DNA of 64,000 nucleotides from Isurus oxyrinchus (Eukaryota). The translations under genes were made by a program, and so were the position numbers. The number at the start of each line of letters is the position of its first letter. Positions within the stretch are counted from its first letter, which is position 1. The stretch is from contig JANJGN010000009.1 in the NCBI GenBank assembly GCA_026770705.1, positions 67,208,001 to 67,272,000 of the forward strand, read 5' to 3'. The notes under the pieces were generated by a model, which had not been told where the DNA came from, ran no database searches, and was given only the letters and a program-made list of their open reading frames with translations. This document shows, piece by piece, positions 10,719 to 60,693 of this stretch.

Positions 10719-13700
10719 TAAGATAAAAGCAAAAAAACTGCGGATGCTTGAAATCCAAAATAAAAATAAAAATACCTGGAAAATCTCAGCAGGTCTGACA
10801 GCATCTGCGGAGAGGAATACAGTTAACGTTTCGAGTCCGTATGACTCTTCAACAGAACTAAAGAAAAATAGAAAAGAGGTGAAATATAAGCTGGTTTAAG
10901 GGGGGGTGGGACAGGTAGTGCTGGATAGAGAGCCAGTGATAGGTGGAGATAGCCAAAAGATGTCATAGACAAAAGGACAAAGAGGTGTTGAACGTGGTGA
11001 TATTATCTCAGGAATGTGCTAATAGGTGACATTAAGGGTAGAAAGCAGGACGAGCAAGGTACAGATAGCCCTAGTGGGGGTGGGGTGGGGGAAGGGATGA
11101 ATAATATGCTAAAAGGTAGAGATAAAACAATGGATGGAAGTACATTTAAAAATAATGAAAAAAGGTGGGGAAAGAAAAATCTGTATAAATTATTGGAAAA
11201 AAGGGGGGTCGGAAAGTGGATGGGGATGGAGGAGAGAGTTCATGATCTACAATTATTGTACTCAATATTCAGTACAGAAAGCTGTAAAGTGCCTAGTCGG
11301 AAGATGAGGCGCAGTTCCTCCAGTTTGCATTAAGCTTCACTGGAACAATACAGCAGGCCAAGGACAGACATGTGGACGTGAGAGCAGGGTGGAGTGTTGA
11401 AATGGCAAGCAACAGGGAGGTCTTGGTCATGCTTGTGTACAGACCGAAGGTGTTCCGCAAAGCGGTCACCCAGTCTGCATTTGGCCTCTCCAACCTAGAG
11501 GAAACCACATTGGGAGCAGCGAATGCAGTAGACTAAATTGAGGGAAGTGCAAGTGAAATGCTGCTTCACTTGAAAGGAGTGTTTGGGCCCTTGGACGGTG
11601 AGGAGAGGGGAAGTAAAGGGGCAGGTGTTGCACCTTCTGTGGTTGCATGAGAAGGTGCCGTGGGAGGGGGTTGAGGTGTAGGGGGTGATGGAGGGGTGGA
11701 CCAGGGTTTCTCAGAGAGAACAATCCTTGCTGAATGCTGCCAGGGTTGCAAAGGGAAGATGTGTTTGGTGGTGGCATTATGCTGGAGTTGGCAGAAATGG
11801 CGGAGGATGATCCTTTGAATGCGGAGGCTGGTGGGGTGATAAGTGAGGACAAGGGGGACCATATAATGGTTCTGGGAGGGAGAAGAAGGCGTGAGGGCAA
11901 ATGCGCAGGAAATGGGCTGGATACGGTTGAGGGCCCTGTCAACCACTGTGGGTGGAAAACCTTGGTTAAGGAAGAAGGAAGCCATGTCAGAGGAACTGTT
12001 TTTGAAAGTGGCATCATCAGAACAGATGTGACGGAGGCGAAGGAACTGAGAGAATGGGATGGAGTCCTTACAGGAAGTGGGGTGTGAGGAGCTGTAGTCG
12101 AGGTAGCTGTGGGAGTTGGTAGGCTTGTAATGGATATTGGTGGACAGTCTATCACCAGAAATTGAGATAGCGAGGTCAAGGAAGGAAAGGGAAGTGTCAG
12201 AGATGGACCATGTGAAAATGTTGGAGGAGTGGGAAATTGGAAGCGAAATTAATAAATTTTTCCAGGTCCAGAGGAGAGCATGAAGCAGCACCGAAGCAAT
12301 CATCGATGTACCGGAGAAAGAGTTGAGTGAAGCTGTCAGAGTAGGACTGGAACAGGGAATGTTCCACATACCCAGTGACAGGCATGACTGGGGCCCATGC
12401 GAGTTCCCATAGCCACACCGTTTGTTTGGAGGAAGTGAGATAAGTTTAAGGAGAAATTGTTCAGTGAAAGATCAAGTTCAGCCAGACAGAGGAAAGTAGT
12501 TGTGGATGGGGATTGTTCGGGTCTCTGTTTGAGGAAGAAGCGGAGAGCCCTCAGACCATCCTGGTGGGGGATGGAAGTGTAGAGGGATTGGATGTCCATG
12601 GTGAAGAGGATGGGGCCAGGGAACTGGAAATTGTTGGTATGATGTAGGGTGTCAGAGGAATCATGGGTGTAGGTGGGAAGGGACTGGACAAAGGGAGAGA
12701 GAATGGAGTCAGGATGGCAAGAAATAAGTTCCATGGGGCAGGAACAGGCTGACACGATCGGTCTGCCAGGACAGTCCTGTTTGTGGATTTTGGGTAGGAG
12801 GTAGAAGTGGGCTGTCTGAGGTTGGGAGACTGTGAGATTGGAAGCTGTGGAAGGAAGATCTCCAGAAGAGATGAGGTCAGTAACAGTCCTGGAAACAATG
12901 GCTTGATGTTCAGTGGTGGGGTCATGGTCCGGGGGAGGTAGGAGGAAGTGTCTGTAAGTTGACGCCCAGCCTCTGTGAGGTAGAGGTCAGTGCGCCAGAC
13001 AACAACAGCACTACCCTTGTCAGCAGGTTGGATGAAAATGTCAGAGTTGGACCTGAGAGAACGGAATGCAGTAAGTTCAGAGAGAGACAGGTTAGAGTGG
13101 GTGAGAGGAGCAGAGAAATTGAGACGACTGATGTTATGCTGACAGTTCTCAATGAAAAGATCGAACGAAGATAAGAATCCAGAGGGAGGGGTCCAGATGG
13201 AGGGAGAATATTGGAGGTGGGTAAAAGGATCCGTTGAACGGGGAAAGGACTCCTGCCCAAAGAAGTGAGCACGGAGACGAAGGCGGCAGAAGAAGAGTTC
13301 AGCATCGTGCCGAGCCCGAAATTCATTGAGATGAGGGCGCAAGGGTATGAAACTAACTCCTTTGCTGAGCAGTGAACATTCAGCATTGGAGAGGGAAAGG
13401 TCAGGGGGTATAGTGAATACACAGCTGGGGCTGGGATTGGAAGACGGGATGGGGATAGAGGGCCAGGTAGGGGTGGAGGGTCCTGGATAGGCGTTGGTGT
13501 CAATGAGTTGTTGGAGCTTCCGTTCCTTTGCACCTGAAAGAAAGAGACACAGTTACTTGTTGAGGCGTCGGATGAGATGAAGAATAAAATGAAACTGGGG
13601 GCACGGACATCTTAGAAATAGGGTGCGGCGGTGCTGCTGGAGGGAGAGGCCGAGTGTGTTCATATGGCGGTGCATGACACTGAGTGTAGATCTCAGGATG

Positions 13701-14442
13701 CAACGAGAACAGCAGTCCGAGGAGCATTGTATGGCCCGGAGATACCTGTAATCCTGGGTGGGTTCAAAACTTGAGGGATGGAACTTCAGTTGAAATCCAC
13801 ATGGGATAAGTCGGAGACGGAGACAGCCACCAAGGAAGGAAATATGGCTGTGAAAGCGGGTTTTATTAAATACTTTGTCAAACACCAGGAGAGAAATGGA
13901 AAGCAATGAAGGTGAACAGGGCAAAAGAGAGAAACGGAAATCCTGTCGGAGAGAAGAGCAATATTCTTCAAGGTAGGCATTCCTTGAAGAGAAGTGGCAA
14001 TCATTTAAACACTAAGGTAAAAGCAAAAAACTGCAGATGCTGGAAATCCAAAATAAAAATAAAAATGCCTGGAAAAACTCAGCATAATCTCCACCTTTTA
14101 GCCTATATCGATCCCTTTCCCCACCCCAACCCCACTAAGGCTATCTGTACCTTGCTCATCCTGCTTTCTGCCCTTAATGTCACCTATTAGCACATTCCTT
14201 AGATAATATCACCACCTTCAACACCTCTTTGTCCTTTTGTCTATGACATCTTTTGGAAATCTCCACCTATCACTGGCCCTCTATCCAGCTCTTCCTATTC
14301 CACCACCCCCCACCCCACCCCCTTAACCAGCTTATATTTCACCTCTTTTCTATTTTTCCTTAGTTCTATTGAAGAATCATAAGGACTCGAAGCATTAACT
14401 GTGTTTCTCTCCGAAGATGCTTTCAGACCTGCTGAGTTTTTC
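10719..14442 (-). mobile_element. Full-length Penelope-like element (RT + GIY-YIG), frameshifted, with an inverted pseudo-LTR at 14086-14442
   Basis: Minus-strand pieces MDIQSLYTSIP, GVAMGTRMGP, FLRYIDDCF, HYKPTNSHSYLDY; 15-bp TSD taagttcttagcctc at 10704-10718 and 14443-14457. Confidence 0.95.
10820..10860 (-). ncRNA. Minimal type I hammerhead ribozyme motif in Penelope pseudo-LTR (variant core CUGUUGA)
   Basis: Minus strand TAGTT-CTGTTGA-A-GAGTC-atacg-GACTC-GAAA-CGTT-AACTG: stem I, core, stem II, GAAA and palindromic AACGTT. Confidence 0.6.
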
Positions 14443-16243
14443 TAAGTTCTTAGCCTCATTGTATAAACCCTGAAAAAATTTGCACTTGGTTGAATGAGGC
14501 AAAACTGAGTTTTTAATGGTACACTAAGTTTGTAATTATTGCTGACCAGCATTATTGGTCCTGAAAGAATAATTTTTTATTTGTTGAATGTCAAATTTCT
14601 CCATGACACTCAGAAATTCCACATTTGTAAAATTATTATTTTTAGAGTTTGTCTGAGATTTTAGCTTTTACATTGATCCCATGTGTTTTCTATTTATTTA
14701 TTTCACTAGCTGTAAAATTTAAAATTAAGTGAGAAGTGATTCAGTGGTTTTTATGTCTTGGTTTTTTGCCTGCGAAAATGCTTATATGTGATTGGCTGGT
14801 TATCCTGCTTAATGACATCATTGCTGCTGGATGCTTGGCGATTCCCTTGACTTGGCACCAGATTTCAAGTAATGCTGAAAAGGAAATATCCACATTACAA
14901 AGATCGCTCACCCTTTGTGAGCAGCTTTTTTCAACGGCAATGGTAAATAACATTGTTTCACGACTGACAAGAAAATCCAACTCATTGACCATAAGGTTCA
15001 TTTCAAAATTGATTTTGGTTATTTCAAATGTGTCGCTTTCAATGTTACCTGTTTATTGTAAACAAAGGAATTTTTTTTAAAAAACTAAAAAGAACAGGGT
15101 GTCATAACAATAAAGGTCAATTGAAGATAACTAAAGTGAGCACCACAAGTCAAATGTTTTCTTCAGTCTCATCTACTTTCAGTCATAAATGGAGTAGGGG
15201 TAAATCCATGGCCATTACCTTAGTATGTGGGACAGGTAGTGTGGGGAATGAAGACATAGGGTGGAATTTTCCATGCCCGCTGGTGTTGGGCATGATCAAT
15301 GGCTTGAGCAGACAGTACTGCACAACAGCGTGAAACCAGTTCATGATTGTCTGCTCAGCCCACCAATGGCAGGCCTCATTTCCCTCCATCAGACATCAGG
15401 AACCTCATTGTAATACATCATCATATAATTATCAGGCCAGCTCACTAGAATTGTTTCCATCCCCCGCCCCAGTGGATCATCCATCCACATCAGTGGGAAA
15501 GCATGCCGACATGTTTCACAAAAGTACATAAAAGGCGTGCACTTTGAGGAGAACTTGGAGGTGAGTACACAGGGTCGCCTGTTGGACTTCAAGCTTGAGG
15601 GGTGTGGGTTGGGATTAAGGTCAGCCTTGCTGTTGAGGTGACTCGTGGCGGGGGAGGGGTCAGGACAGCTGTTAAGGGCAGCCCTGCTGTTCAATATAGC
15701 ATTCGGGGTGGGGAGTCGGTGGGTGAACGAAGTGGCCACACATTTGGAAAACCTGTAAAAAGTAACCATTCCTCTGCAAATGAGGCAATTCAGGCACAGC
15801 TACATTGATATGATTGAGATTGGTCTTCTTGCTTATCTGCCCACTCAAGCAACAAAGAGGCATCAAAGTGCCACCAAGTGCTCCAGAGGTCCCCCCGGCC
15901 CCACCCGGCACAGACTGCAAATTCATGAGCATTTTGGTGGACAGCAGAACAGTTGGACTGCACACATTGTACAAGCTCCTCGCTAAAGCTGGCCATGTAG
16001 CAGTCACTGCTGAAGGGCTCAGAGCCCCTTGCAATGTCAGCACCCCAATTTGGACCAGTCTCCCCCAGGATTCAACCTAAAAGGGCAGCCATGCAGCACA
16101 CTAATCTCTGGCCATCCAAGTGGTGGCCAGCACTCTCCGGAAAGCATTAAGGGGCCGTCACATGTAACAGGACAGGTTCTTAGTGCACCCATGCTAACCA
16201 CGTGTCTCTCTCTTTCATCCTGCAGGAAGAGTACATCAGGATC

Positions 16244-17424
16244 ATGGAGCCTGGTGAACGAGCTGTATGCCTGATGGTCTACGGAGTGCAAAGGCAGCAG
16301 AGGAGAAGGCAACTGAGGCTGCTGGCTACACAGAGACAGGAGCAGCAACCTCAGGAATTGGGGCTCCTGCAGAACCTAGTGACACTCAGGGTCTATAGAC
16401 ACCGCCTGTCATTCCTGCAGTTGACCGAGAACAAGTATCGCCGAAGACTGGGCACATCTGCCAGTTACAGCAGGATTTGGTGCCATGGGGACATGGAGGG
16501 CATCCACTGCCAGTGGCCATGAAAGTGATAGTGGTGCTCAATTTCTATGACAGTGGCTCCTTTCAGCACTTCACAGGTGACCTCTGTGGGATATCACAAG
16601 CCTCCAGCTACAAATGCACCCATGAGGTCATGGATGCCATCTTTGCAAGGGCACACAACTTTGTGCATTTTGCCTGAGACCAGGACAGCCAGAATGCAAA
16701 AGCGATTGGATTTGCCCAGGTTTCGGGTTCCCCACAAGTGCAGGGTGCGATTAACTGCACTCGTGTGGCATTCAAATCTCCATCGCAAAACACGGTGAAC
16801 TACATCAACCGCAAAGGGTTCCATTTGCTGAATGTGCAGCTGGTGTGCGACCACCATAAGCGCATCCTGCTGGTGTGGGCACGGTTTCCAAGGAGTGCGC
16901 ACGACACCTACATCCTCAGTTGGTCACAGATCCCTGGAGTCTTCCAGTGTCCACAGAAGCTGCAAGGTTGGCTCCTTGGGGACAAGGGCTACCCACAGAG
17001 GCCGTGGCTGATGACACTTGTGCAGCAGCCTCAGACTGCTGCAGAGCAACGGTATAACGAGGCTCATGCTGCAGCTCTCAACTTGGTGGAGCACACCATC
17101 GGGATGCTGAAGATTAGGTTCTTGTGCCTGGACTGGTCTGCTGGAACCCTGAAATACAGTCCGCAGAGGGTGTCAGGCATTGTCATCGTTTGCTGCGTGC
17201 TTTTCAACATGGCACTCCAACAGGGAGATGAGCTGACTGAGGAGGAGTCAGAGGAGCTGCACATCTCCTCTGATGAGGAGGATACTGATGGGGCTGAGGG
17301 TGAGGACGTCATCGGAAGCAATGATGATGGGGATGAGGCCCTCGCAATGGCTAGACGAGGCAGACATGCTTGGAAGGCCCTCATAGCTGCTAGAATTTTG
17401 GAGGTTGATGATGACATGCAGTGA
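16244..17424 (+). pseudogene. Harbinger (HARBI1-like, DDE) transposase pseudogene
   Basis: Motifs GAINCT (first catalytic D changed to N), YINRKGFH, LLGDKGYP, VEHTIGMLKIRF and an acidic tail; in-frame TGA at 16675 and a frameshift near 16460. Confidence 0.9.
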
Positions 17425-18149
17425 AGTGACCCCAAGGTTTGTCACATCACATCTGTGAATGTTTGACTACAGTGTAGCTTATGGCAGCATGAATACCCTC
17501 TGTGAGAATGCTCCTGTCATGGAGACACAGTGGAGGCCCTAATAGTCACTCAATTACAGGAAGATGATGATGACATGCAGTAAGGACACTCCATAAATCT
17601 TCACATAACCCCTGAAAATGTCTGACTCCTGTCGGGCCGAGGACAGCTCACTTGCACTCTGTGATCAGGGTAATATCATAGAGACGCTGCCAAGAAACTT
17701 TATAAGCATCTGATCCATTGTCTGCCTTTAACACCTGAGCCCTTCAGGAGCTGGAGCACAGCATCACTGGTCACAGATGCTGACGAGATGGGGGCCACCC
17801 CAACATAAAGGTGCTAAGAGCTCACAGAGAGAATGAGAGAACTCTGTGATGCCTGCCCCCTACATTCTGGCAGCAATAACAAGCACCACCAAGGTGCAGG
17901 CATCAGTAATATGTCCAGGGATTGTAAGGCCGGACCATCACTTTGATCTGAAGGCTGCACAAAGCACAGAGAAGAAGCACTGGGCTGAGACACCTGCCTT
18001 TATCTTGTGCAGAAAGCTTTCACATCTGAGTGACAAGAACACTGCTCATCAGAACAAGGAGTCATAGGCACGGAGACATCCTTGGGAGTCAATTGTCAAT
18101 AGTAAACAGAACATACAAATGATTATCACCCATGCCCAGGCTATGTAAC

Positions 18150-19385
18150 TTTCCTTTAACTTTCCTAACCCACCCTTTTGGTGCTCCCCAGACATCCACA
18201 GCAGAGGTGGAGGCAGCCTGCTGACTGCAATGCCCTGTCTGTGACGGCCGAGACTTGGACACCTGGCCTGCTTTTGGGGCCCTGCTCTGTGACAGTGGCA
18301 TCCTTCTTGGCCAGTGGAGCTGGAGCTGCTGAGATCACAGGAAGTGGGGATTCAGATGGACCGGACACTCTCTGAGTCACCTGGATGGATGGGCCTGGAG
18401 TGTCACCTGCTGATCCTCCTCCCTATGGGGGCCCCAGCTAACTCCTTGTGGAGCAGGATAGCTGGAATGAGATCGGGCTGCACAGCACCCCTTATGCGTA
18501 CACGCTGTTGGAGGTCAACTATGGCATCAGCGATGGAGTTGAGCCCGCAAAGCAGAGCAGGAGCAAAGTCCTGGACCAAGGTCTCCATTGCAGCCACCTT
18601 CCTACAAGTCTTGACCTTGGTGAGTTGGCATGCTGGCGCTATCACCTCAGCCTGAAGGCAGGTGGACTCCTCCATCGTGCCTTGCAATTTGAGGAGTGCA
18701 GCAGACATCCTTTCCTGATATTCCTGAACTTGTCTCTGCAGCTCCAGCAACTGTGACATGACTGAGTCCAGAAGCTCATCATCTGACTCGGACTCAGCAA
18801 AGTTCTGGCCTCCAACAGTCCTCCGAGTGCCAGAAACCTGGAAAGTCCCTGTCGCTGCTATGGATCAGATGGTGCAATGTGCTCACCAGATTGTGATTCC
18901 GAGGCTACTCTAAAGCTAGATCCCACGGAGGTGTGTGTTTCTGTGCTGGTGGAGGGTGTGGGTGAGCGCTGTGTGACAGGACTTCAGCGAGGGTGCCTTC
19001 AGATTCCTCTTCAGAGGTTTCTTCGGGGCTTGATTGGAGGCCCTGGGTCATGGACTCCACGACTGTTTGGCAGATCTGCCAAAGCAATAATTAGTGCATG
19101 GAAGTGGCCTAGGAAACAGGACACATCACTCACAGCATGGTTGTCTGATGGATGTTGTACTGCTGGACCCTCACTTGGTAGAGCACCATCGACCTCACTG
19201 TCAGCACAGATCCTTGCTGGCCACAGTCTCCCAAGCCGGGTTAGCACAGTTGCTGCCTGTCCTGTGGCCAGAGCGGGGGTAGAGGACATCCCGGAGGGCC
19301 TCCACGGCATCCAAAAGGTGCTTGAGGGACGGCATCTCTGAACATGGGGGCTGCAGTCTCCTTCAGTTTCAGGGCTATGTCTTCA
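18150..19385 (-). pseudogene. Harbinger Myb/SANT-like DNA-binding protein pseudogene
   Basis: Minus strand MKNIALKLKETAAPMFRD..LKHLLDAVEALRDVLYP..PAWETVA (frameshifted); acceptor ttgctttggcag near 19080; coiled-coil-like MSQLLELQRQVQEYQERM. Confidence 0.75.
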
Positions 19386-19883
19386 TGCAGCATTGCTGGT
19401 CTGGAAGCACTGAGATGTGAGCTTGAGGCTGGACTTTAAATATGGCGCCCGGCATGATGCAGCGGTGTGGTGATGGCAGGCGGGCAAATTAGAGCACAGC
19501 ATGTTTCCTAGGAGTGCATAAATAATGTGGCAGGTGTGGAATGATACGGCGTGAAAACCCGCCATCGCAGCCAGCGGTTAAAATGTCATTTTACCTGCCC
19601 GCTATGGCACTTAGTGCAAATCTGGGAAAATTCCGCCCATATTCTCCAGTGATGCAGAAACATCCCATAGAGGATTCACAAACTGCCCTTTAGGATTAGC
19701 TTTGGATTACAGAATTTTTGGACCCAGGGTTCCCATCACAACTGGTCAAATATTACTAAAATTATGTTGACTGAAGTTACTGGTTTACGTTAAATAGAAA
19801 AATTAGGCAATGAATCCCATGTGAGCCGAGTTTCAACCAAAATGCAATGAGTGACTTGTGGAAGCAGACAAAATACCACAGAA

Positions 19884-20030
19884 AGAAAACAAAAGCCAAA
19901 ATACTGTCTATGCTGGAAATCAGAAATGAAAACAGAAAATGCTGGAAATACTCAGCAGGTCTGGCAACATCTGTGGAGACAGAAACAGAGTTAATGTTTC
20001 AAGCCAAGGATCTTTCTTCAGTTTTGAACA
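19884..20030 (-). mobile_element. Short non-coding Penelope pseudo-LTR derivative with a degenerate hammerhead
   Basis: Matches the PLE 3' end (gctggaaa.actcagcaggtctggca.catctg); minus strand CTGAAGA..GAAACATTAACT at 19989-20025. Confidence 0.75.
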
Positions 20031-37814: not shown

Positions 37815-38964
37815 CTTGTTTGACAAGCCTGTTGGAGTTTTTGGAGGATGCCATTAACAGAATAGTAAGGGGTGAAACAGTAGATATGGTGTATTTGGAT
37901 TTTTAGAAGTCTTTCAGTAAGGTCTCACATAGTGAAGTTAATAAACAAATTTGGAGCTCATGGGATTGGGGGAAATATACTCGCATGGATTGAGAATTAG
38001 TTAACTGATAGAAAATAGAGAGTAGGGATAAATGGATCATTCTCAGGTTGGCAGGCTATGACTAGTGGGGTACCGCAAAGATCAGTGCTTAGACCCCAGC
38101 TATTCACAATATATATCAATGACTTTGATGTGGAAACCAAATGTAATATTTCCAACTTTACTAAGGACACAGAACTTGGTGGGAATGTGAATTGTGAAGA
38201 GGATGCAAAATGGCTTCAAGAAGATTTATACAGACTAAGTGAGTGTGGAAGAACATGGCAGATGGAATATACTGTGGAAAAATGTGAAGTTATCCACTTT
38301 GGTAGGAAAAACTGAAATGCGGAGTATTACTTAAACGGGGAGAGATTGAGAAGTGTTGATGTCTGAAGGGTCCTGGTGTTCTTATTCATTAGTCACTGAA
38401 AGCTAACATACAGGTGTAATAAGCAATTAGAAAGGTAAATTGTATGTTAGCCATCACTGCAAGTGGATTTGAGTATAGGAGTAAAGAAGTCTTTTTGCAG
38501 TTGTACAAGGCCTTGGTATGGCCACACCTGGAATATTGTGATGTTTTGGTCTCCTTACCTAAGGAAGGATATACTTGCCATAGTGGGAGTGCAACAAAGA
38601 TTCACCAGACTATTCCCTGGGATGGCAGGATTGTCCGTTAAGAAAACATTGAGGAGACTGGGCTTGTATTCTCTAGAGTTTAGAAGAATGAGAGATGATC
38701 TCATTGAAGTGTACAAAATTCTTTCAAGATTCAGCAGAGTAGATACAGGACGAACGTTTCCCCTGGTAGGGTGGTCTAGAAGCAGGGGACAAAGCCTCAG
38801 AATACGAGGTAAGTCATTTAGGACTGAGATGAGGAGGAATTTCTTCAGTCAGAGCATGATAAATTGCAATCAATGAATTCATTGTGACTCGCAGTTGCAA
38901 TGGCAGGTAAACACTGCCACCAATTTGTTTACAGTGGGGTGCCACACTCAACAATGACAGTTAA

Positions 38965-39085: not shown

Positions 39086-39565
39086 CATGATTATTTATTC
39101 ACTTCATAGTACTTTGTGGAACACACATCTGACAATCATTGTGAAGTAGCCACAGATGATGCTGTGAAGGAGAATACGTAGAGAAAAACAGCATGAACCA
39201 ATTGAATATAGAGTGTAGGGGATTCTAGTGGACATTAGAAAGGGTATAAGTTCTTCTCATTGAGCGCAAATGCAAAATGGACCATCCCAAGTAAGCGGTA
39301 CACTTTATACTCTGCATGATTTTTTTTTGTCCATTATCTTTAATGTAGAAGTAGTGTAAAGCTATTCATTGTTACCTTTTTTGCACCATTGACTTGCTGA
39401 ATTTCTACCCTAAGATTTCAAATATCTTACATAAATTTGCTTGAGGAGTATGACTAATGCAGAATATAAAAATTCAATAAACGAGAAAAGGGATAGAAAG
39501 CTGCAGAATAGAAGAAGTAAATGATAGCAGGTGGCATGTGTTAAAAATGGCACAAATTAATACTT

Positions 39566-41188
39566 TCCAGGACTGTCACTGACCTCATCTCCTCTGGGGA
39601 TCTCCCTCCCACAGCTTCCAACCTGATAGTCGCCCAACCTCGGACAGCCCGCTTCTATCTCCTACCCAAAATCCACAAACAGAACTGCCCCGGTAGACCG
39701 ATCGTCTCAGCTTGCTCCTGCCCCACAGAACTCATCTCTCGTTATCTTGACTCCCTTCTCTCTCCCCTTGTCCAGTCCCTTCCCACCTACATCCGTGATT
39801 CCTCTGACACCTTACGTCACATCAACAATTTCCAGTTCCCTGGCTCCAACCGCTTCCTCTTCACCATGGACGTCCAATCCCTCTACACTTCCATCCCCCA
39901 CCAGGATGGTCTGAGGGCCCTTAGCTTCTTCCTCGAACAGAGGCCCGAACAATCCCCATCCACCACTACTCTCCTCCGTCTGGCTGAACTTGTTCTCACG
40001 TTGAACAATTTCTCCTTCAACTCCTCTCACTTTCTCCAAATAAAAGCTGTGGCTATGGGTACCCGCATGGGCCCCAGCTATGCCTGTCTCTTTATGGGGT
40101 ATGTGGAACATTCCTTGTTGCAGTCCTACTCCGGCCCCCTTCCACAACTTTTTCTCCGGTACATCGATGATTACTTCGGTGCCGCTTCATGCTCTCGTCG
40201 GGACTTGGAAAAATTTATTAATTTTGCTTCCAATCTCCACCCCTCCATCATTTTCACGTGGTCCATCTCTGACACTTCCCTTCCTTTCCTTGACCTCTCT
40301 GTCTCAATCTCTGGTGATAGACTGTCCACCAATATCCATTACAAACCCACCGACTCCCACAGCTACCTCGACTACAGCTCCTCACACCCCGCTTCCTGTA
40401 AGGACTCCATCCCATTCTCCCAGTTCCTTCGCCTTCGTCGCATCTGTTCCGATGATGCTACCTTCAAAAACGGTTCCTCTGACATGTCCTCCTTCTTCCT
40501 TAACCGAGGTTTTCCACCCACAGTCGTTGACAGGGCCCTCAACCGTGTCCGGCCCATCTCCCGCGCATCCGCCCTCACGCCTCCTCCTCCCTCCCAGAAA
40601 CATGATAGGGTCCCCCTTGTCCTGACTTATCACCCCACCAGCCTCCGCATTCAAAGGATCATCCTCCGCCATTACCGCCAACTCCAGCATGATGCCACCA
40701 CCAAACACATCTTCCCTTCACCCCCCTTATCGGCATTCCGTAGGGATCGCTCCCTCCGGGACACCCTGGTCCACTCCTCCATCACCCCCTACTCCTCAAC
40801 CCCCTCCTATGGCACCACCCCATGCCCATGCAAAAGATGTAACACCTGCCCCTTCACTTCCTCTCTCCTCACCGTCCAAGGGCCCAAACATTCCTTTCAA
40901 GTGAAGCAGCATTTCACTTGCATTTCCCCCAACTTAGTCTACTGCATTCGTTGCTCCCAATGTGGCCTCCTCTACACTGGAGAGACCAAACGTAAACTGG
41001 GCGACCGCTTTGCAGAACACCTGCGGTCTGTCCGCAAGAATGATCCAAACCTCCCTGTCGCTTGCCATTTTAACACTCCACCCTGCTCTCTTGCCCACAT
41101 GTCTGTCCTTGGCTTGCTGCATTGTTCCAGTGAAGCCCAACGCAAACTGGAGGAACAACACCTCATCTTCCGACTAGGCACCTTATAG
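39566..41188 (+). CDS. Penelope RT + Cys linker + GIY-YIG endonuclease (5'-truncated, open frame)
   Basis: Frame open from the insertion edge: FYLLPKIHK, GRPIVS, MDVQSLYTSIP, FLRYIDDYF, CPCKRCNTCP, VYCIRCSQCGLLYTGET..RFAEH..VACHF; TAG at 41186 where the copy at 59461 has CAG. Confidence 0.9.
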   Translation, partial: SRTVTDLISSGDLPPTASNLIVAQPRTARFYLLPKIHKQNCPGRPIVSACSCPTELISRYLDSLLSPLVQSLPTYIRDSSDTLRHINNFQFPGSNRFLFTMDVQSLYTSIPHQDGLRALSFFLEQRPEQSPSTTTLLRLAELVLTLNNFSFNSSHFLQIKAVAMGTRMGPSYACLFMGYVEHSLLQSYSGPLPQLFLRYIDDYFGAASCSRRDLEKFINFASNLHPSIIFTWSISDTSLPFLDLSVSISGDRLSTNIHYKPTDSHSYLDYSSSHPASCKDSIPFSQFLRLRRICSDDATFKNGSSDMSSFFLNRGFPPTVVDRALNRVRPISRASALTPPPPSQKHDRVPLVLTYHPTSLRIQRIILRHYRQLQHDATTKHIFPSPPLSAFRRDRSLRDTLVHSSITPYSSTPSYGTTPCPCKRCNTCPFTSSLLTVQGPKHSFQVKQHFTCISPNLVYCIRCSQCGLLYTGETKRKLGDRFAEHLRSVRKNDPNLPVACHFNTPPCSLAHMSVLGLLHCSSEAQRKLEEQHLIFRLGTL

Positions 41189-41616
41189 CCTTCCGGTCTG
41201 AATATTGAGTTCAACAACTTTAGGTCGTGAGCTCCCTCCCCCATCCCCACCCCCTTTCTGTTTCCCCCTTTTTCCCTTTTTTTTCCCTATAAATTATATA
41301 GATTTTTCTTTTCCCACCTATTTCCATTATTTTTAAATATTTTAAAATCTTTTATGCTCCCCCCATCCCCACTAGAGCTGTACCTTGAGTGCCCTACCAT
41401 CCATTCTTAATTAGCACATTCGTTTAGATAATATCACCAACTTTAACTTTAACACCTATGTGTTCTTTTGTACCATTGTCGCTGACATCTTTTGATGATC
41501 TGCTTCTATCACTGCTTGTTTGTCTACACAACCACCTCTCTCTCTCCCTATCTCTCCGCCCCACACACACACCTTAAACTAGCTTATATTTCAACTCTTT
41601 CTTGGACTCGAAATCA

Positions 41617-41655
41617 AGTTCTGTTGAAGGGTCATGAGGACTCAAAACGTCAACT
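41617..41655 (+). ncRNA. Hammerhead motif copy (GAAA mutated to AAAA)
   Basis: AGTT-CTGTTGA-A-GGGTC-atgag-GACTC-AAAA-CGTC-AACT. Confidence 0.45.
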
Positions 41656-43548
41656 CTTTTCTTCTCCGCCGATGCTGCCAGACCTGCTGAGTTTTTCCAG
41701 GTAATTCTGTTTTTGTTTTGGATTTCCAGCATCCGCAGTTTTGTTTTGTTTTTAACAAATTAATACTTAATGCATGATCGAATTAATATTAATGAAGGGA
41801 TTGTGGAAGACATAAGGAACATAGCGATTAACATCAATGAAGTAACCAGTACAACAAATTACCCATACTCAATAGAGCTTCCAGACACTGCAACAATAAT
41901 AGAATCAAATTGAGTATAATAAAATAGCTTTTTATAGGATGAAGTGGGTGAATGCCACACTGAAAAAAAGTTACATTAAATCTTTGAATGAAACTCTTGC
42001 ACATTTAGTTTGGAAATAATTTTCTTCCTTTCGTTATTTTAACTGAAGTTAATTATTATAAAATATTTTCATCAATTTTAAGTATATAGCAAACAGGTTA
42101 ATCCTAAAAATATAATCCATTGCGACCAATCTGAAGTGCTTTAGGCTATGTTAGATCAACTGTTGCTTTCTTCACTGGTTATCACGAGACATACCCAGAA
42201 GAAATATTGGCTTGTAATGGTTGTTCCTGCAAGTCAGAGGAATATTTGTGTTGGAATCTATGATGCTTAAGAGGTCCCTTCAGATTTATTATTCCTTAAA
42301 AGCCTCTCTTGATGTATTTCAGTTTATATGTCTTTCTGTCTAATTTGGCCAGATAGAAACCGGTTGAAGGCGTCTTTGTAATTAAGAGAAACAATGGTGG
42401 CTTGACTATAATAATTAGGTAAACTTTCCTCTTCTCTGCCTGGGCAGTAATTTGATGGGGTGGATTTCTGGACATTCCTAAAACCCATCTGATTTTCATT
42501 CCATTACAGTCCGTGCAGTGGAGATGAAAATCTACGCCAAAATGTTTAAATAGCAGAGGTAATCAAATTAAATTTGTTGGTTCAGGCTTTATTGGTTCAC
42601 AAATATTGTCCATATTTGAATACCGACAATGGCAATACATCTGCTATAGTAACGAGAGATTCAGTTTTCATTGGGCTTTGTTCTAATATATCTCCAAAGG
42701 ATTGTGAATAACATATCTGTAGCTGACTTTATCTTCATCAGTTGGTCTTAGAATTCAAAGCCAACAGAGTAGCTGATCAAGTTGGATCTGGTTGTCTGGT
42801 GAAGTTTTCCTATGCATAGAGTGAGTGACAGTTTTTCGAAGATCAGCGTTATATTGCAAAATAACACACGAGTAGCATTTTTGATATTTGCAGATTAGGA
42901 AAGATTGTAGCTATTTATATTGTTTGTACAGAATATTGTTCGCTTCTCTATTTAAATGTGAAATAAATGTTGTTTTCTAACATGAGCCTCAGGTTGTTAG
43001 GCTACATTTATCTGCCTATTAAAGACAATAAGATCATATGGTGATATATTCCAGGAAGGCATAATGCAGTGACAAGAATTCCTGTTACATTGGCTTAAAT
43101 ATTAGGCAGTTAACGACATATTTTGATTCATTGAAAGTGGCCATTGCTACTGAGCACAAATAATATATCTAGTTTGAAACCTCCAAAAAAGTAACAAGGG
43201 GCTTACTCCATGTAGCTAAGTAAATATTTTATCTTAATAAAGGACTACGGTACACATAACCATTCAGAAAAAATATTAGTATGTTGTCTATATAGTTATT
43301 TCAAGGGCAATCCTTACTGTAAAGAATTTCCACTTCCTAGCACAATTATTTTCAATATGCAACGAGAGATAGCCCTTAAACTCCAAAAGAACTACAACAA
43401 TATCCTACTACCCAATATATCAATTACCATTATCGATGCCAATCTAAATACATAAGGATATGAAATATGCCCAGTAATTTCCTTACCTAACAAAAATTTA
43501 TCTTAGTGTTGAATTTTTCAACTGATCTAACTTGCTCCCTTTGGTTAG

Positions 43549-48549: not shown

Positions 48550-50460
48550 TAATTCCTCCAAGAGGTTGAGGACATACAGCCATGCCTATTCTTCTACCCC
48601 ATCCCACCCCAACACTTCCCTCCCAGTTAGCTGCAGTTGCCTACAGTTGTGTGCCAATCTGTCCTGCAGAAGAGAAGGAAGTGTGTCAGTGAGTATGGTG
48701 CAATCTGTTTGGGTGATGTGTCTTTCATGGTTGAATAGCATTTTAGGAATATTTCTAAACACTAGCATTTGTTGAGAATTTAATAGGTGTTTCAATAAAA
48801 TGATACATGTGTATGTATTAGTTGCAGTTTTCTCTTTGGTTTTGTATGGATCATAGATAGATAAACATGATAACATCTATACTGCAAATTTTAGCTAGTT
48901 TTATGCATACTATACACTGTGCACTGGTAGTGAAAGCAATATTTCCAGTTGTTGCCCCTTGAAATTAATTATAATCTGTTATTTTTATTCTATATTTGTG
49001 AATTTGAATTATTCATAAACAAGCTCCACTCTGAGCATTTTGCTCTTCTTGGCCTAGTGAGGTCCTTATTTTGGAGCAGAGTAATTGCAACCTACAGCTT
49101 TCACAGCTGCTAAGTCTGCCTCAATCTCTTCCCTCTTTTCACTGTCAGGCGACATTGATTTTTGACTCTAAAGTTCAATATTGAAGATGCTTCTTTTTAA
49201 AGATATATTACCTTCATGTCAAAAGCTTACTTTTGTTGTATGACAATATGTGCAAACTGTAAGATGTGGGCATGAGGTTTGCAACAATGCTAAATGTGTG
49301 AGGGTGGGATGAAATTAGGAATGTAAGATATGAGTCGTGATTGATAGAGTTTGTTGGTAGATGAGTGATGGAGGTGTGGTGCATTGAGAAGTGTTTGATG
49401 TTAATGGTGCATTAAGTGGATGATGAAGAGGCATGCACTGACATTAACCACTGGTGAGAAGTCATTAAGTATTTTTAACAATAATTCTTCCAGATCCCCA
49501 GGAGACAGTGGTGGCATTGACCATGATGGCTATCTGCTCCCACTGCCTTTGCAGTGTCTGGGCTGCAATTTCTTAACCCCGTTTGGTTTAGGGGAAGAGG
49601 GTGCAGGGAAAATGAATGCCTTCCAGATATATTCCCACGTATGGGGAGGTTTCCCAGGGGCAGTTGGGGAACCAGATCAATTGAGATGTTTAAAGTCCCA
49701 AATAGGGTAAACTTTGCAACCTCACCAGCATTTCTCCACCGTCAGTGCAGCCCACCCCACCATCCCCCACCCCGGCCACATGTGATGGCCACCATCTCAA
49801 TTGAGGCAGCCTTCCTCCAACAGATTGGAGGACCATTGGAGCCTGAGGCTCCTTGCTCCAAAGAGCGGGCCACCGACAGGGAAGGCTACATACACAGCCC
49901 AAGCTAATCCTCTGGAGGGGTTATCCTGCTGTTTTGAAGGTAGTTCCATTGTGAGGCACCCTCACAGTTTGCAACCTGCCTCAGCAGCACTCAGCTCTGC
50001 CAATAGGGCTCTCAAAGTTCCAGAGCTGCCAGCCTGTTGATTGGGCCAGCAGCATTGAGAAGCCACCCTCCATCCTTTATAGGACTGCGAACGTGTGTGA
50101 GACCAATTAAGATTGCACTGGTAAGTGCCAGCTTGGGAGCCCCCCAATTGGTCCTGACATCTGTTTCCCAAAACCTGCTATAACATCCAACCATCTGTCA
50201 GGAGGGCCTCCTGGAATCCTGTGGATAGCAGATCTTTCCACTCCTGTCCACCTCCTGCATGAAGGCTGCCAGTGCAGCACCAGAACACCTTGTAGCACGC
50301 TCTCTTCCATTTGAGCCATTATTCTGGGGTCTTTCTGCTTTGACACACTTCCCCAGCAAATTCCAGCACTTGTTGCAGCCATAATACACCTCCCTTTTAA
50401 GAGGTGCAAGCTGGCTTTAAGGAGTACTAATCTCGCATGAACATGGGCCCACTATTGAGC
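48550..50460 (-). mobile_element. Degenerate Harbinger Myb-side remnant, interrupted by a 506-bp duplicated segment and a MITE-like insert (~49560-50190)
   Basis: Minus strand GRERATRCSGAALAAFMQEVDRSGKICYP resembles the N-terminus of the Myb-like gene at about 19350. Confidence 0.55.
48737..49242 (-). repeat. Inverted duplicate of 60986-61487
   Basis: Reverse complement alignment by eye shows about 4 substitutions and one 4-bp indel over ~500 bp. Confidence 0.96.
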
Positions 50461-51639: not shown

Positions 51640-51935
51640 ATGTCTCAAAGCTTTACAACCAGTGAAGTGCTTTGAACTGTAGTAATGTAAGGAAATGCAG
51701 CAGTAAGGCCCCACAAGCAGCAGTGAGGTAAATCATCAGATAATCCATGAAATGTTGGTGGTTGAGAAATAAATATTGGCCAGGACAGGAAAACTCCCTC
51801 GCTCTTCTTCAAATAATGCCATGGGATCATTTATGTGTACCTGAGAGAGCAGGCTGCTTTAACATTTCTTTAGAAAGATAGCTGCTCCAAAAAAGCTTCA
51901 ATCCCATGGTACTGCATTGAGATGCTGATCTAGAA
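51640..51935 (-). mobile_element. Deu-domain SINE, partial
   Basis: Reverse complement matches 45690-45930. Confidence 0.7.
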
Positions 51936-52810
51936 TGTCTTTTTATTTTTAAGGTACAACCAGTCACTACTCATGTTATACTAGCTCCTCTCCTGTAACA
52001 TTTTATCTAGAGTATCTATCATAGCTTAAAGGCAGCAATCAATTTTCTCTTGTACTCCAGAAAAGAAAAATGGCAGAAGCTGGAAGGCGAAGATTGTGAA
52101 TTTTTCTTCTCACTGATAAAAGGGATTAAAGCATTCTCATTCTATGTTTATCTAGCTCAGACCGGCTAGGATGCAACAACAAAAATACCTTGTTTAGCTT
52201 TGCTCTTCTTAAATTGAAGATGTCACAATAATGGGAAATTGTGACTGTGTGATATCAACTGATAATTTTGCCAGCTAACCAAAAACATACTGAATTGTTT
52301 AAAAGGGACTTTTTTTAGATAAGGTAAGAAAAGGCACAGACCAAACATGGCTGCCACAAGTCACCTGATGTCTGGAAATGTAAGTTGACCACGAAGTTAC
52401 TATGTGGATTGCACTGCAGACATGCCCTAACTTTATTGTTCATGGAATGTCACACCTGGGGCTGTCGAGGCCCACTTCAAAAAGGAACTATCAAGATAAT
52501 GAGGAACTGCTAGCTAGCTAGGATATACACCCAGCAGACACTCAAACCCCTGTGGAGGATGAAAGAACCCCATCTCCTGTTGGTTTCTGCTATCTTGAAA
52601 TGTGCTAAACGTTTCTGAGATAGAACATCAAAATGTGATTACTTGTTCCACAAAAATGACTACAGCAGGCATAGTAGTCAAATTGCTTTCGAATATATGG
52701 CAAGCAGGACTTTAGGAATTGGATAAAAACAAAATACTGTAAATCTGATACAGAACCAGAAAATACTGGAAAAACCCAACAGGTTGAATAGCATCTGTGG
52801 AGAAAAAAAG

Positions 52811-52849
52811 TGTTAACATTTCGAGTCCGCATGACTCTTCTTCAGAGCT
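52811..52849 (-). ncRNA. Hammerhead motif with canonical CUGAAGA core
   Basis: Minus strand AGCT-CTGAAGA-A-GAGTC-atgcg-GACTC-GAAA-TGTT-AACA; stem I is degenerate. Confidence 0.5.
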
Positions 52850-55800
52850 TAGGGGAAGGAAAAATGTGATGACATTTACACTGTTTAAGGGGGAGTGGAG
52901 GAGATGAAGTGGGATAGAAGGCCAGTGATAGATGGAGGCAAAGGAGAGATTGACAAAGATGTCATGAACAGAAGGACAAAGGGGTGTTAATGGTAGTGGT
53001 ACAGGCTAAAGGAGGTGCTGATGGTGGCATTAAGACTAGAAAACTGAATGTGGCATTCCTGGAAGAGAAATGGCAGTGAATTAAACACTAAGATAAAATC
53101 AAAATACCGTGGATGCTGGAAATATGAAACAAAAACAGAAAATGCTGGAAAAACTCAGCAGGTCCAACAGCATCGATTGAGAAAAATGGAGTTATAATGT
53201 TTCAAGTCTGTATGATTTTTCTTCAGATCTAAAGAGAAGTAAAAATGTGATGACATTTATACTGTTTAAGGGGGGGTGGAGCAGGTGAAGCTGGATAGAA
53301 GGCCAGCGAAAGTGAAGGCAAAAGAGAGATTGACAAAGATGCCATGAACAAAAGGACAAAGGGGTGTATTAATGGCAGTGGTACAGGCTAAAGGAAGTGC
53401 TGATGGTAGCATTAAGGTAAGAAAGCAGAATGTGCTTTCCTGGACCTCTCCCTCTGGCCTTTTACCTGCTCTTGATCTTTTCATTGAGAACTGTCGGCGT
53501 GACATCGGCCGTCTACCCTCCACCCCTTCCTATCCCTCTGACCCCATCCCATCTTCTAATCCCAGCCCTTGCCATGTATTCACCATACCCTCTGACCTTC
53601 CCCTCTCTGATGCTAAATGTTGAATACTCAGCAAAGGGCTCAGTTTCATACCCTTATGCCCTCACCTCAATGAATTTCGGGCTCAGCACGATGCTGAACT
53701 CTTCTTTCACTGCCTTCGTCTCCTTGCTCACTTCATTGGGCAGCAGTCCTCCCCCCTGTTCAACGGATCCTTTCACCTGCCTCCAGTATTCTCCCTCCAC
53801 CTGGACCACACCCTCTGGCCTCTTATGTGCTCTTGATCTTTTCACTGAGTACTGTCGGCATAACATCAGCTATCTCAATTTCTCGCTCCTCTCACCCACT
53901 CTAACTTGTTTCCTTCTGAACTAACTGCGCTCCATTCTCTCAGGTCCAACCCTGACATTGTCACCAAACCTGCTGACAAGGGTGGTGCTGTTGTTGTCTG
54001 GTGTACTGACCTCTACCTCACAAAGGCTGAGCGTCAACTCGCAGACACTTCCTCCTACCTCCCTTTGTACCATGACCCCACCACAGAAAATCAAGCTATT
54101 GTTTCCAGGCCTGTCACTGACCTCATCTCCTCTGGAGATCTTCCCTCCACAGCTTCCATCCTCATAGTTTCCCAGCCCCGGACAGCCCGCTTCTACTTCC
54201 TCCCCAAAAAACACGAACAGGACTATCCCGGTAGACCGACCGTGTCAGCCTGTTCCTGCCCCACAGACCTCATTTCTTCCTATCTTGACTCAGTTCTCTC
54301 TCCCCTTGTCCAGTCTCTTCCCACCTACATCTGCGACTCCTCTGATACCCTATGTCATATCAATAATTTCCAGTTCCCTGGCCCTGACAGCCTCCTCTTC
54401 ACCATGGACGTCCAATCCCTCTACACCTCCATCCCCCTTCAAGATGGTCTGAGGTCTCTCTGCTTCTTCCTTGAACAGAGGCCCGAACAATCCCCATCCA
54501 CCACCACTCTCCTCCGTTTGGCTGAACTTGTTCTCTCACTGAACAATTTCTCCTTAAACTTGTCTCACTTCCTTCAAATAAAAGGTGTGGCTATGAGTGC
54601 ACACATGGGCCCCAGTTATGCCTGTCTCTTTATGGAGTATGTGGAACATTCCTTTTTCCAGCCCCCCTCCCACAACTCTTTTCTTGATATATTGATGACT
54701 GTTTTGGTGCCGCTTCATGCTCTCGTCTGGACCTGGGAAAATTTATCAATTTAGCTTCCAATTTCCACCTTTCCATTACCTTCATATGGTCTATCTCTGA
54801 CACTTCCCTTCCCTTCCTTGATCTCTCTGTCTCAATTTCTGGTGATAGATTGTCCACCAATATTCATTACAAGCCTACCGACTCCCACAGCTACCTCGAC
54901 TACAACTCCTCACACCCCGCTCCCTGTAAGGACTCCATCCCATTCTCTCAGTTCCTTCGCCTCCGTGGCATTTGTTCTGATGATGCTACTTTCCAAAATG
55001 GCGCTTCTGACATGTCTTCCTTCTTCCTTAACCAAGGTTTCCCACCCACAGTGGTTGACAGGGCCCTCAACTGTGTCTGACCCATCTCCCAGACCTCTGC
55101 CCTCGCACCTTCCACTCCCTCCCAGAACTATGATAGGGTCCCCCTTGTCCTTACTTTTCACCCCACCAGCCTCTGTATTCAAAGGATCATCCTCCACCAT
55201 TTCCGCCAACTCCAGCATGATGCCACCACCAAACACATCTTCCCTTCACCCCCACCCCTCCCCATCGGCATTCCGTAGGGATCATTCCCTCCGGGACACC
55301 CTGGTCCACTCCTCCATTACCCCAACACATCATCCCCCTCCCACAGCACCTTTCTATGCAATCGCAGAAGGTGCAACACCTGCCCCTTTACCTGCTCACC
55401 ATCCAAGGGCCAAAACACTCTTTTCAGGTGAAGCAGCGCTTCACTTGCACCTCCTTCAATTTGACCTACTGTATTCGCTGCTCCCAATGCGATCACCTCT
55501 ACATTAGAGAGACCAAACGCAGACTGGGTGACCGCTTTGCGGAACACCTTTGGTCCGTCCGCAAGCATAACCCAGACCTTCCTGTTGTTTGCCATTTCAA
55601 CACGCCACCCTGCTCTCATGCCCACATATCCATTCTTGGCCTGCTGCATTGTTCCAGTGAAACCCAACATAAACTGAAGGAATAGCACCTCATCTTCTGA
55701 TTAGGCACTTTACAGCCTTCCAGACTTAACATTGAGTTTAACAACTTAAGACCATGAACTCTCTCCTCCATCCTCACCACATTTTTATCCCCTTTTTCAA

Positions 55801-56193
55801 TATTCATTTTTATTTTTATACACATTTTTATTTGTATTTATTTTCATTTTTATTCCTTGTTTTATCCTCACCTTTTATCCTACTTTCGATCTTTTTTCCC
55901 ACCACCATCCCTTCGCCCCACGCCCACAAACACCATCTGTCATTTGCTCATGTTGTTCTTTCCAGAGTGCTTACCCTTGTCCTGCTATTATCACATTCTG
56001 TTTTCTTACCTAAATGCCACCATCAGCACCTCCTTTAGCCAGTACCACTACCATTAACATTCCTTTGTCCTTCTGTTCATGACATCTTTGTCAATCTCTC
56101 CTTTGCCTCCACCTATCACTGGTCTTCTCTCAAGCTTCACCTGCTCCACCCTCCTTAAATAGTATAAATGTCACCACATTTTTACTTGTCTTT

Positions 56194-56232
56194 AGCTCTG
56201 AAGAAGAGTCATATGGACTTGAAATGTTAACT
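56194..56232 (+). ncRNA. Hammerhead motif with canonical CUGAAGA core
   Basis: AGCT-CTGAAGA-A-GAGTC-atatg-GACTT-GAAA-TGTT-AACT. Confidence 0.5.
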
Positions 56233-57261
56233 CTGTTTTTCTCTCCACAGATGCTGTTGGACCTGCTAAGCTTTTCCAGCAGTTTCTGTTTTTCATATTG
56301 GGTTTGCCAAGCAGAAGCAGAGGAACCTGGAGAAGCTGCTATGGAAGAGTAAGCAATTTATTTCTCTGTCTCTCTCTAGGAATAAGCACAACACCTGGTT
56401 TAAGAAATCAGCATACTCAAGACCTACGTGTGAACCGAGATTTTGTAAGAATTGCAATATCTTCGAAATCTACCTGCTCCAAGGAACAAGTTAACTTAAC
56501 TCGGACTACAATGTTTAAAATCTATTCCTCAAAGGTAAGCCAAGGACTTCTAACCATATATTGTTTTGACTTTTATTTGGACTCTAACTTTCCTTACTCC
56601 TAATACCTGTGTATATGTGACGTCTCGGGTTTAGTGACTAATAAACTTGCTCTTTCTTTGACACAAGAAAACCCTCATCAATTGGCTCCTTACTGTTCAC
56701 TGCACAGACAGTAAAAAATATATTTGGATTTGCAATAGGCATCCACAGGGAAAAGACATTTAAAAATCTTTGTTGTGACCAACCGAGGAGAGTGAATAGG
56801 GGGGAACCAGTTCACTCTTCTTCACCTGACCATAACAAAGGAGTTAAATGTTCTCTTAGGCCAGTGTGACCAGCCCAGACTAGTAAATTATACTGGCTGC
56901 TCCAAATATATTTCATGTTTTTAAGTTAGCATTAAGTGAGTGGATGTCATGCATTCTGAACAACTCTAATGGCCTAATGATCTTCCTGGAAATGGCATAC
57001 ATGTAATTCTAGAAACTAACTGACACACCACTGCTACCAAATGAAGTAAATCAACCTGAAAATCTAACAAAATACAGAGCAGGTTTACAAAAGGTTATTT
57101 TTTCTACTAAGGAGTATTACTGACAAGGTAAGAGAAAGAAAGTACAATTAAATTAAAATGTAGAGCAGGAATCAGACAACAGAAATAAGAAGAAAGTGCA
57201 TCCTTATATTCAGCATTATGATAATAATGGAGAAAATATTAATAATGAAGCCTCCTGCTAA

Positions 57262-59210: not shown

Positions 59211-59316
59211 AGATTCTTCTATGCAGGTTTACATATCTTAAAAGTGGCATTAAAAGAAAATCCAGAGAACAGTATAATGTTCATAATAGCAACTAATCAA
59301 AATCATGTTGAAAAGT

Positions 59317-60026
59317 GATAAAAACAAAAAAACTGCAGATGCTGGAAATCCAAAACAAAAACAAAAACAGAATTACCTGGAAAAACTCAGCAGGTCTGGC
59401 AGCATTGGCGGAGAAGAAAAGAAACTGGAGGAACAACACCTCATCTTCCGACTAGGCACTTTACAGCCATCCGGACTGAATATTGAATTCAACAACTTTA
59501 GGTCGTGAGCTCCCTCCCCCATCCCCACCCCCTTTCTGTTTCCCCCTTCCTTTTTTTTCTCCAATAAATTATATAGATTTTCCTTTTCCCACCTATTTCC
59601 ATTATAAAAAGAAATTATTTATTTATTTATTTATTTTTACTTCTTTTATGCTCTCCCCAACCCCACTAGAGCTATACCTTGAGTGCCCTACCATCCATTC
59701 TTAATTAGCACATTCGTTTAGATAATATCACCAACTTTAACTTTAACACCTATGTGTTCTTTTGTATTATTGTTGTTGACATCTTTTGATGATCTGCTTC
59801 TATCACTGCTTGTTTGTCCCTACAACCACACCCCCATTCCACCTCTCTCTCTCTCTCTCCACCCCCCACACACACACCTTAAACCAGCTTATATGTCAAC
59901 TCTTTCTTGGACTCGAACTCAAGTTCTGTCGAAGGGTCATGAGGACTCGAAACGTCAACTCTTTTCTTCTCCGCCGATGCTGCCAGACCTGCTGAGTTTT
60001 TCCAGGTAATTCTGTTTTTGTTTTTG
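59317..60026 (+). mobile_element. Short Penelope insertion: inverted pseudo-LTR end (59317-59422) followed by the 3' end
   Basis: KLEEQHLIFRLGTLQPSGLNIEFNNFRS* and a 3' UTR near-identical to 41145-41720. Confidence 0.92.
59922..59960 (+). ncRNA. Hammerhead motif (variant core CUGUCGA, GUC cleavage triplet)
   Basis: AGTT-CTGTCGA-A-GGGTC-atgag-GACTC-GAAA-C-GTC-AACT. Confidence 0.6.
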
Positions 60027-60383
60027 TAACTACAAAGATAGCCTGCGCTACTACTCTGTTGGTTACAGGAGTTCATGCGATCTTCCTTATAACATCCTTC
60101 TTAAAGGTATAATTCACATTACGTAAAACCATATTTACCACAAGGGGGAAAAAATAACATTGGTTAGAATGGAATATGTAGAGGCTAGGCTTCACCACCA
60201 ACCACCCCCTGCACCGCGCACCCCCCCGCCCCACCCCCCCACCCTCCCACCCCCCACCAGTGAAAAGGTAGAGTAAACAAAAAGAAAGATTGTTCAAAGG
60301 GCTATGCAAATATGCTTCATCTGGTCTGTTGTTTGCTTATGGCAATCTAGACAATTAGCTCCGTATTAGCAGTATTAAATGCA

Positions 60384-60693
60384 CCTATGTGTTCTTTTGT
60401 ACCATTGTCACTGACATCTTTTGATGATCTGCTTCTATCACTGCTTGTTTGTCTACACAAGCACCTCTGTCTCTCTCTCTCTCCGCCCCCCCCCCACACA
60501 CACCTTAAACCAGCTTATATTTCAACTCTTTCTTGGACTCGAAATCAAGTTCTGTCGAAGGGTCATGAGGACTCAAAACGTCAACTCTTTTCTTCTCCGC
60601 CGATGCTGCCAGACCTGCTGAGTTTTTCCAGGTAATTCTGTTTTTGTTTTGGATTTCCAGCATCCGCAGTTTTCTTTGTTTTTATCTCTGTGT
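60384..60693 (+). mobile_element. Solo Penelope pseudo-LTR insertion with hammerhead motif at 60548-60586
   Basis: Near-identical to 41455-41754; 9-bp TSD ttaaatgca at 60375-60383 and 60694-60702. Confidence 0.9.

Follow-up and report, generated by a model that had tools for sequence, protein, structure and literature searches.

A window of 64,000 nucleotides from the genome of Isurus oxyrinchus (assembly GCA_026770705.1, contig JANJGN010000009.1, positions 67,208,001 to 67,272,000 of the forward strand) holds nine copies of a minimal hammerhead ribozyme motif, which belong to one lineage of Penelope-like element (PLE). An original prediction had placed nine such motifs in the pseudo-long terminal repeats (pLTRs) of Penelope elements. 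A sequence check located all of them on the predicted strands and within 1 nt of the predicted coordinates, with the loop varying among them as described there. A profile built from the nine motifs returned the same nine and zero additional whole motifs in the window, and a structural descriptor gave a mean of 0 matches on 100 shuffles of the window. In a search of Rfam, the hammerhead families gave no match at E ≤ 1. All nine are in element ends, either a pLTR or a short end copy, and read in the sense direction of the element. The identity as minimal type I hammerhead motifs in the pLTRs of a PLE, with an open reading frame (ORF) for reverse transcriptase (RT) and GIY-YIG, agreed with published motifs of this kind (PMC4209133). 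Location in pLTRs held for most copies; the motif at 19989 is in a solo short copy, and those at 14362, 52811 and 53191 are in inverted pLTRs (Table 1).

The 926-aa frame of the element matched RVT_1 above its cut-off and GIY-YIG at E 9e-4, under its cut-off, and the linker between RT and the endonuclease (EN) carries a Zn-finger-like C-x4-C-x2-C. The features of EN+ PLEs are present: a single ORF, a C-terminal GIY-YIG, partial tandems forming pLTRs, an inverted 5ʹ pLTR, and a tail. The motif lies in the pLTR, with 140 nt from the predicted cut to the ATG of the ORF, and it recurs every ~3.3 kb in tandem units. When the genome was searched with the young ORF, 189,224 first-look candidates came up; of the 81 that were scored, many had intact 926-aa frames at 99% identity and some stood in tandem with a period of ~3.3 kb. 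On two contigs (C6:32495269 and 32498596; C2:236819907-236828193), two or three young units follow one another head to tail at a period of ~3.33 kb, and these arrays are candidate source copies. No element in the window has two intact motifs on the same strand.

Table 1. Features of the window. Strata A to D, defined in the text, run from the least to the most diverged copies.
Positions	Strand	Feature	Remarks
10718..14084	-	Near full-length PLE with frameshifted RT/GIY-YIG ORF, 3ʹ pLTR and tail	Accompanied by inverted pLTR
10821..10859	-	Minimal hammerhead motif, stratum B	Intact save A6U; predicted cut between 10825/10824
10882..10888	-	TATA-like box	29 nt 5ʹ of stem I; putative promoter
14087..14442	+	Span enclosing motif 14362..14400	
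14362..14400	+	Decayed motif	G5A, A6U, stem II mismatch, A15.1G, G16.2A; within inverted pLTR
19877..20025	-	Solo short copy, old type	Motif 19989-20025 plus tail
19989..20025	-	Old-type motif in solo short copy	A6 core, stems broken
39564..41754	+	Young stratum A PLE, 5ʹ-truncated	547-aa open frame, 98% identity to intact 926-aa genomic frame
41585..41591	+	TATA-like box	32 nt 5ʹ of stem I; putative promoter
41617..41655	+	Motif	A6U and G12A (CpG site)
52811..52849	-	Motif, stratum C, in inverted pLTR 52722-53063	Canonical core, two stem I mismatches
53191..53230	-	Decayed motif, stratum C, in second inverted pLTR 53081-53444	Broken stems
53440..56313	+	Stratum C PLE body, broken, with 3ʹ pLTR	Two inverted pLTRs alongside (52722-53063, 53081-53444)
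56194..56232	+	Motif, stratum C	Canonical core, C.A mismatch in stem I
59314..59421	-	Inverted tail piece without motif	Begins 4 nt past predicted cut
59422..60027	+	Stratum A copy, 5ʹ-truncated	ORF end, pLTR, tail
59922..59960	+	Motif, exactly the active-family form	Intact save A6U; predicted cut after 59956
60382..60700	+	Separate stratum A pLTR copy	Holds motif 60548-60586
60548..60586	+	Motif in stratum A pLTR copy	A6U and G12A
15259..19638		PIF/Harbinger-type DNA transposon (likely)	DDE_Tnp_4 frame 16678-17424; short terminal inverted repeats at both ends; apparent 3-bp duplication

Motif positions follow the conventional hammerhead numbering. The core had been written as CTGwnGA in the prediction. 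The w in this pattern masks a derived change from A to U at position 6 (A6U) that is fixed in the active family. The canonical core CUGANGA is absent from five of the nine window copies, which carry U6, and none of the nine passed a strict minimal-hammerhead descriptor with that core. When U was allowed at position 6, two passed (10821-10859 and 59922-59960). Stems I and II pair as predicted in these two, but are broken at 19989 and 53191, and stem I is mismatched at 52811 and 56194. The predicted cut after 59956 was correctly placed. GAAA, the UH cut triplet and the palindromic 15.1-16.1 that replaces stem III are kept in the family consensuses, but decay has removed this set from most window copies. 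Positions 11.1-12 and 15.2-16.2 are both CpG sites, and G12 and the palindrome decay first because they sit there (41617, 60548, 52811, 56194). The remark that several copies are mutated was borne out base by base, most of the window copies being decayed; the nine are themselves mostly dead.

Copies from random genome samples and from the window (172 in all) were clustered on the columns downstream of A9 and fell into four strata. Stratum A, with 2.8% divergence, had U6 in 53 of 54 copies; stratum B (9%) had 13 U, 6 A and 1 G at this position; stratum C (13%) had A6 in 24 of 25, with one gap; and stratum D (19%) had A6 in 14 of 14. At the young ORF-bearing loci L082-L110, picked by ORF likeness to the window copy, U6 was present in 29 of 29, and in ten of these an intact frame is flanked by two same-strand motifs. 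Exact genome-wide matches to otherwise equal patterns numbered 84,291 for U6 versus 4,317 for A6, a ratio inflated by age. A tree of the ORF 3ʹ end, built with the motif and 23 near-identical young copies left out and weakly rooted, was ladder-like: a U6 group took in all young copies, one young A6 copy excepted, and the older A6 copies branched outside this group. The strata and the tree mark A6U as derived, and it is fixed in the young family, whose ORFs are intact.

Fig. S3 of PMC4209133 has A6 in 56 of 56 representative motifs, found with a descriptor that required A6. The change A6C, natural or engineered, strongly lowers cleavage in Mg2+ (PMC3088659, PMC7151607), and a pairwise scan found low activity for single substitutions in the CUGA turn (PMC9901934). 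By analogy, U6 would weaken cleavage. Our literature search found no report of a PLE hammerhead with A6U or of this lineage; Lunse et al. (RNA Biol 14:1499) may cover such variants.

Abundance was estimated from 140 evenly spaced 10-kb pieces of the genome (1.4 Mb). The motif profile had 149 motif-covering matches there, which corresponds to ~530,000 per 4.98-Gb genome, and 0 matches in the same 1.4 Mb reversed. The descriptor matched 2 sites with the canonical core versus 35 when U6 was allowed. This result indicated that canonical descriptors undercount the motif.

The covariation test proposed in the original prediction gave a divided result. Pairing was present in 93% of the stem cells of 40 copies selected for an intact core, but covariation did not exceed shuffles (51 of 500 shuffles reached the score). 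Two stem II pairs changed on both sides between stratum D and the younger strata, and one pair turned into G.U later. Stem I had zero covariation, with a C.A mismatch in stratum C. In predicted monomers, the stem I pairing was 0.01-0.07 in four of five folded natural copies and 0.5 in the fifth. We found no folding account of U6, the natural A6 and U6 copies all misfolding variously.

If the motif were a pure relic free of constraint, with A6U a neutral change carried by a successful master copy, the covariation score would be as expected; a single ladder-like master lineage gives few independent changes, and the sequence 3ʹ of the motif is conserved too. Through four strata, however, both stems and the other core letters were kept as the flanking spacer was replaced; the two compensatory pairs in stem II also argue against a pure relic. 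We regard a pure relic as extremely unlikely.

In the youngest subfamily, the stem II 3ʹ strand and GAA occur a second time immediately 5ʹ of the motif (59902-59921, 41597-41616, 60528-60547). A permuted hammerhead formed through this upstream repeat was considered and dropped, because sister subfamilies are without the repeat.

The ends of genomic copies were then mapped, with positions counted from the predicted cut. We used 89 young copies chosen by the anchor +23..+58, of which 59 came from random samples and 30 were the first on contig C1. Forty-four of the 89 extend beyond the TATA-like box. The other 45, short copies, start at -45..-31 (30 copies), -30..-12 (12), beyond +21 (2) and -48 (1), and none starts at -11..+21. 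The mode, -35, is the base that opens stem I. Short copies occur alone or head-to-head; in the random set, an inverted partner lies directly upstream in 19 of the 28 young copies starting at -44..-12. Stratum C, with A6, has the same start peak with more noise: 22 of 55 copies start at -44..-29 and 16 of 55, mostly very diverged, at -11 or later. The 3ʹ ends of the young copies form two groups, +60-74 (46 copies) and +95-114 (38 copies), as expected from two internal RT start sites.

The TATA-like box lies 32, 29 and 31 nt 5ʹ of stem I in strata A, B and C, and a box 29-32 nt upstream would place the transcription start at about the first base of stem I. Reverse transcription by the element protein would begin internally, at two sites in the tail of the RNA, ~+65 and ~+100, which fits published in vitro work. 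Priming at the 5ʹ copy would run off at the RNA start and leave inserts of 100-150 bp with motif and tail, often in head-to-head pairs, and priming at the 3ʹ copy would give long 5ʹ-truncated copies.

The same clustering of 5ʹ ends at stem I could come from a splice acceptor (a conserved AG) or another processing site rather than from a transcription start. A pyrimidine tract and YAG border stem I in strata B, C and D, and the intron of the fly Penelope ends at helix I (PMC4209133). Starts are, however, scattered over -44..-31 instead of falling on one base, the flanks show no common upstream exon, and the pyrimidine tract is poor in the youngest form. No GT..AG joint was listed in the RNA-like contigs of four runs over the region, which is weak evidence; these contigs are uninformative on starts, ends and strand. 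Taken together, a processing site is highly improbable as the source of the starts.

Genome-wide, 377 starts fell in the window around the cut versus 636 in a control window, and the cut-window starts amounted to ~2% of at least 83,739 copies after correction for detection. Exact starts numbered 242 at +1 versus 205 at the control position -7, both counts including small deletions. This result indicated no genome-wide excess of copy starts at the predicted cut.

In stratum D, other repeats, which begin GG-rich, interrupt four of 30 loci (L261, L272, L273 and L284, ~1529) precisely at the predicted cut. We rejected these breaks as cleavage footprints: in three of the four loci the element resumes 0.7-0.8 kb on, so they are later insertions. 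A target preference at the DNA level at the cut site can mimic a cut footprint.

The original prediction had these RNAs process themselves by pairing of two pLTR copies. This claim found no support in our analysis: A6U is fixed in the active family, the starts lie upstream of the cut without an excess at it, and the window lacks an element with two intact same-strand motifs. Working ribozymes could nevertheless cut the element RNA in this way if U6 were tolerated, or rescued by protein or another metal ion. Apart from position 6, the core is unchanged in the active family, which also retains the ACGU palindrome and both stems. The dimer model is still conceivable because tandem units place two motifs on one RNA and because protein or Mn2+ might rescue the core: minimal motifs have low dimer activity (PMC4209133), the anole motif is assisted by protein (PMC11167929), Mn2+ rescues A6C (PMC7151607, PMC3088659), and there is a faint class of starts at +1. 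Against working ribozymes stand A6 in the published representatives cited above, the lack of excess at the cut, the low predicted stem I pairing of monomers, and the spread of stratum C despite a C.A mismatch in a 4-bp stem I. We judge working ribozymes unlikely, though worth real weight.

We concluded, with a probability of roughly 0.6, that the nine motifs are minimal hammerhead copies from one long-lived PLE lineage, that its active A6U family likely cleaves weakly or not at all, and that its copies likely come from uncut RNA starting at the motif. The changed core letter, together with short copies that start before the cut, suggests that cutting is weak or unneeded for jumping. Cleavage would strip the capped start or the tail from the RNA, so copying would not need it. 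In assays of an anole PLE, insertion was unaffected by ribozyme mutants and uncut RNA was the main substrate (PMC11167929), and PLEs without hammerheads spread well (PMC8557442). The motif shape would persist because it is inherited, and probably because the RNA fold or an overlapping promoter is still used.

Several observations weigh against this conclusion. Changes in the motif since A6U are at tolerant sites (N7, the loop, H17 and one A-U to G.U), and the spacer 5ʹ of the motif and the tract 3ʹ of it changed more than the motif, which suggests that selection on the motif fold may have continued after A6U. The position-6 and CUGA-turn rates that we found published cover A6C and others, none of them A6U, and the root of the ORF-end tree depends on one long branch. 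The transcription start is read from DNA alone, and the fly Penelope, with its intron ending at helix I, has a TATA-less promoter. Cleavage by the anole ribozyme needed protein, and protein might rescue a weak core (PMC11167929). Ten of 30 cut-window loci begin exactly at +1 (nominal p 0.003), and rare cleavage may occur. Of 30 loci that start precisely at +1, 20 are joined to an inverted partner (in at least 6 via stem I microhomology), 5-6 are small deletions, and the rest have other flanks. Moreover, cut RNA may not be copied: the cut products would be uncapped and perhaps never templates, so that the lack of +1 starts is no proof of lacking cleavage.

The PLE hammerhead might also be a brake. 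Cutting at the RNA start or just before the tail would destroy the template, and the lineage would have repeatedly weakened the ribozyme, by the stem I mismatch in stratum C and by A6U in strata B and A, while the fold was kept; the A6U form would have driven the latest burst. We consider this reading rather doubtful and put it forward tentatively.

The motif class, its location in pLTRs and the dimer idea are already published. The motifs resemble the minimal hammerheads of metazoan PLEs (Cervera and De la Pena 2014, PMC4209133), which are type I, located in pLTRs, and have no stem III and a palindromic 15.2-16.2. Both also share an extra base after A9, a U-rich 5ʹ flank, mostly solo copies and close opposite-strand pairs. 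Unlike that set, in which every representative has A6, the dominant family here has U6, its oldest stratum has A-U and not G-C at 10.1-11.1, and its motif count by profile contrasts with thousands by descriptor there. The small PLE hammerheads of Lunse et al. likewise have a reduced stem III and PLE association, and dimer cleavage was reported for them.

The Anolis Poseidon element PAc (Frangieh et al. 2024, PMC11167929) is similar in that two internal RT start sites define its tail, uncut RNA is the main substrate, and no RNA ends at the cut. In contrast, the ORF of PAc starts inside the ribozyme and its core is described as canonical, whereas here the ATG is at +140, the linker is Zn-finger-like and genomic 5ʹ ends appear to mark the RNA start. 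The likeness to the Neptune/Nematis EN+ PLEs (Craig et al. 2021, PMC8557442) is one of features: a single ORF, RT, a DKG motif, the C-x4-C-x2-C linker, a C-terminal GIY-YIG, partial tandems, an inverted 5ʹ pLTR, and a 30-40 bp tail.

The A6C hammerhead of phage Bcep176 (PMC3088659, PMC7151607) likewise has a natural change at position 6 in an otherwise unaltered core. That motif has C, occupies one phage locus, and has canonical stems and measured activity, slow in Mg2+ and better in Mn2+; the U6 here is fixed in a family with more than 80,000 exact copies and is known from sequence alone. A non-LTR retrozyme was rejected, as the window has no head-to-tail array of short non-coding units with complete motifs. 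The sole direct pair (52811/53191) consists of two decayed pLTRs of an ORF-bearing element.

Other features were also noted. At 59977-60009 and in all strata, at about +21 to +53, a short frame (10 codons in the young family) begins with a conserved ATG, well before the main ORF. The older strata have a pyrimidine tract and CAG just 5ʹ of this ATG, and a donor-like site is present at +50 in strata A and B. A 506-bp repeat, another young element, is present at 48737-49242 and 60986-61487 in opposite orientation with 98% identity. Two fragments (1436-2376 and 37890-38706) are 66% alike and have no Pfam match; we take them to resemble the RT ends of CR1-type LINEs.

The job of PLE hammerheads is an open question in the literature (PMC4209133, PMC11167929, PMC8557442). 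In this genome, natural A6 and U6 forms occur within one lineage in order of age, alongside an active ORF that is still intact, and the starting point of the template RNA is recorded in tens of thousands of short copies; our literature search found no prior use of copy starts to read the template. Whether cleavage helps or hinders transposition becomes testable with this lineage, as does internal priming with run-off as the source of many solo motifs in animal genomes. If the hammerhead is a brake, the genome would hold a dated natural series for testing the purpose of PLE ribozymes.

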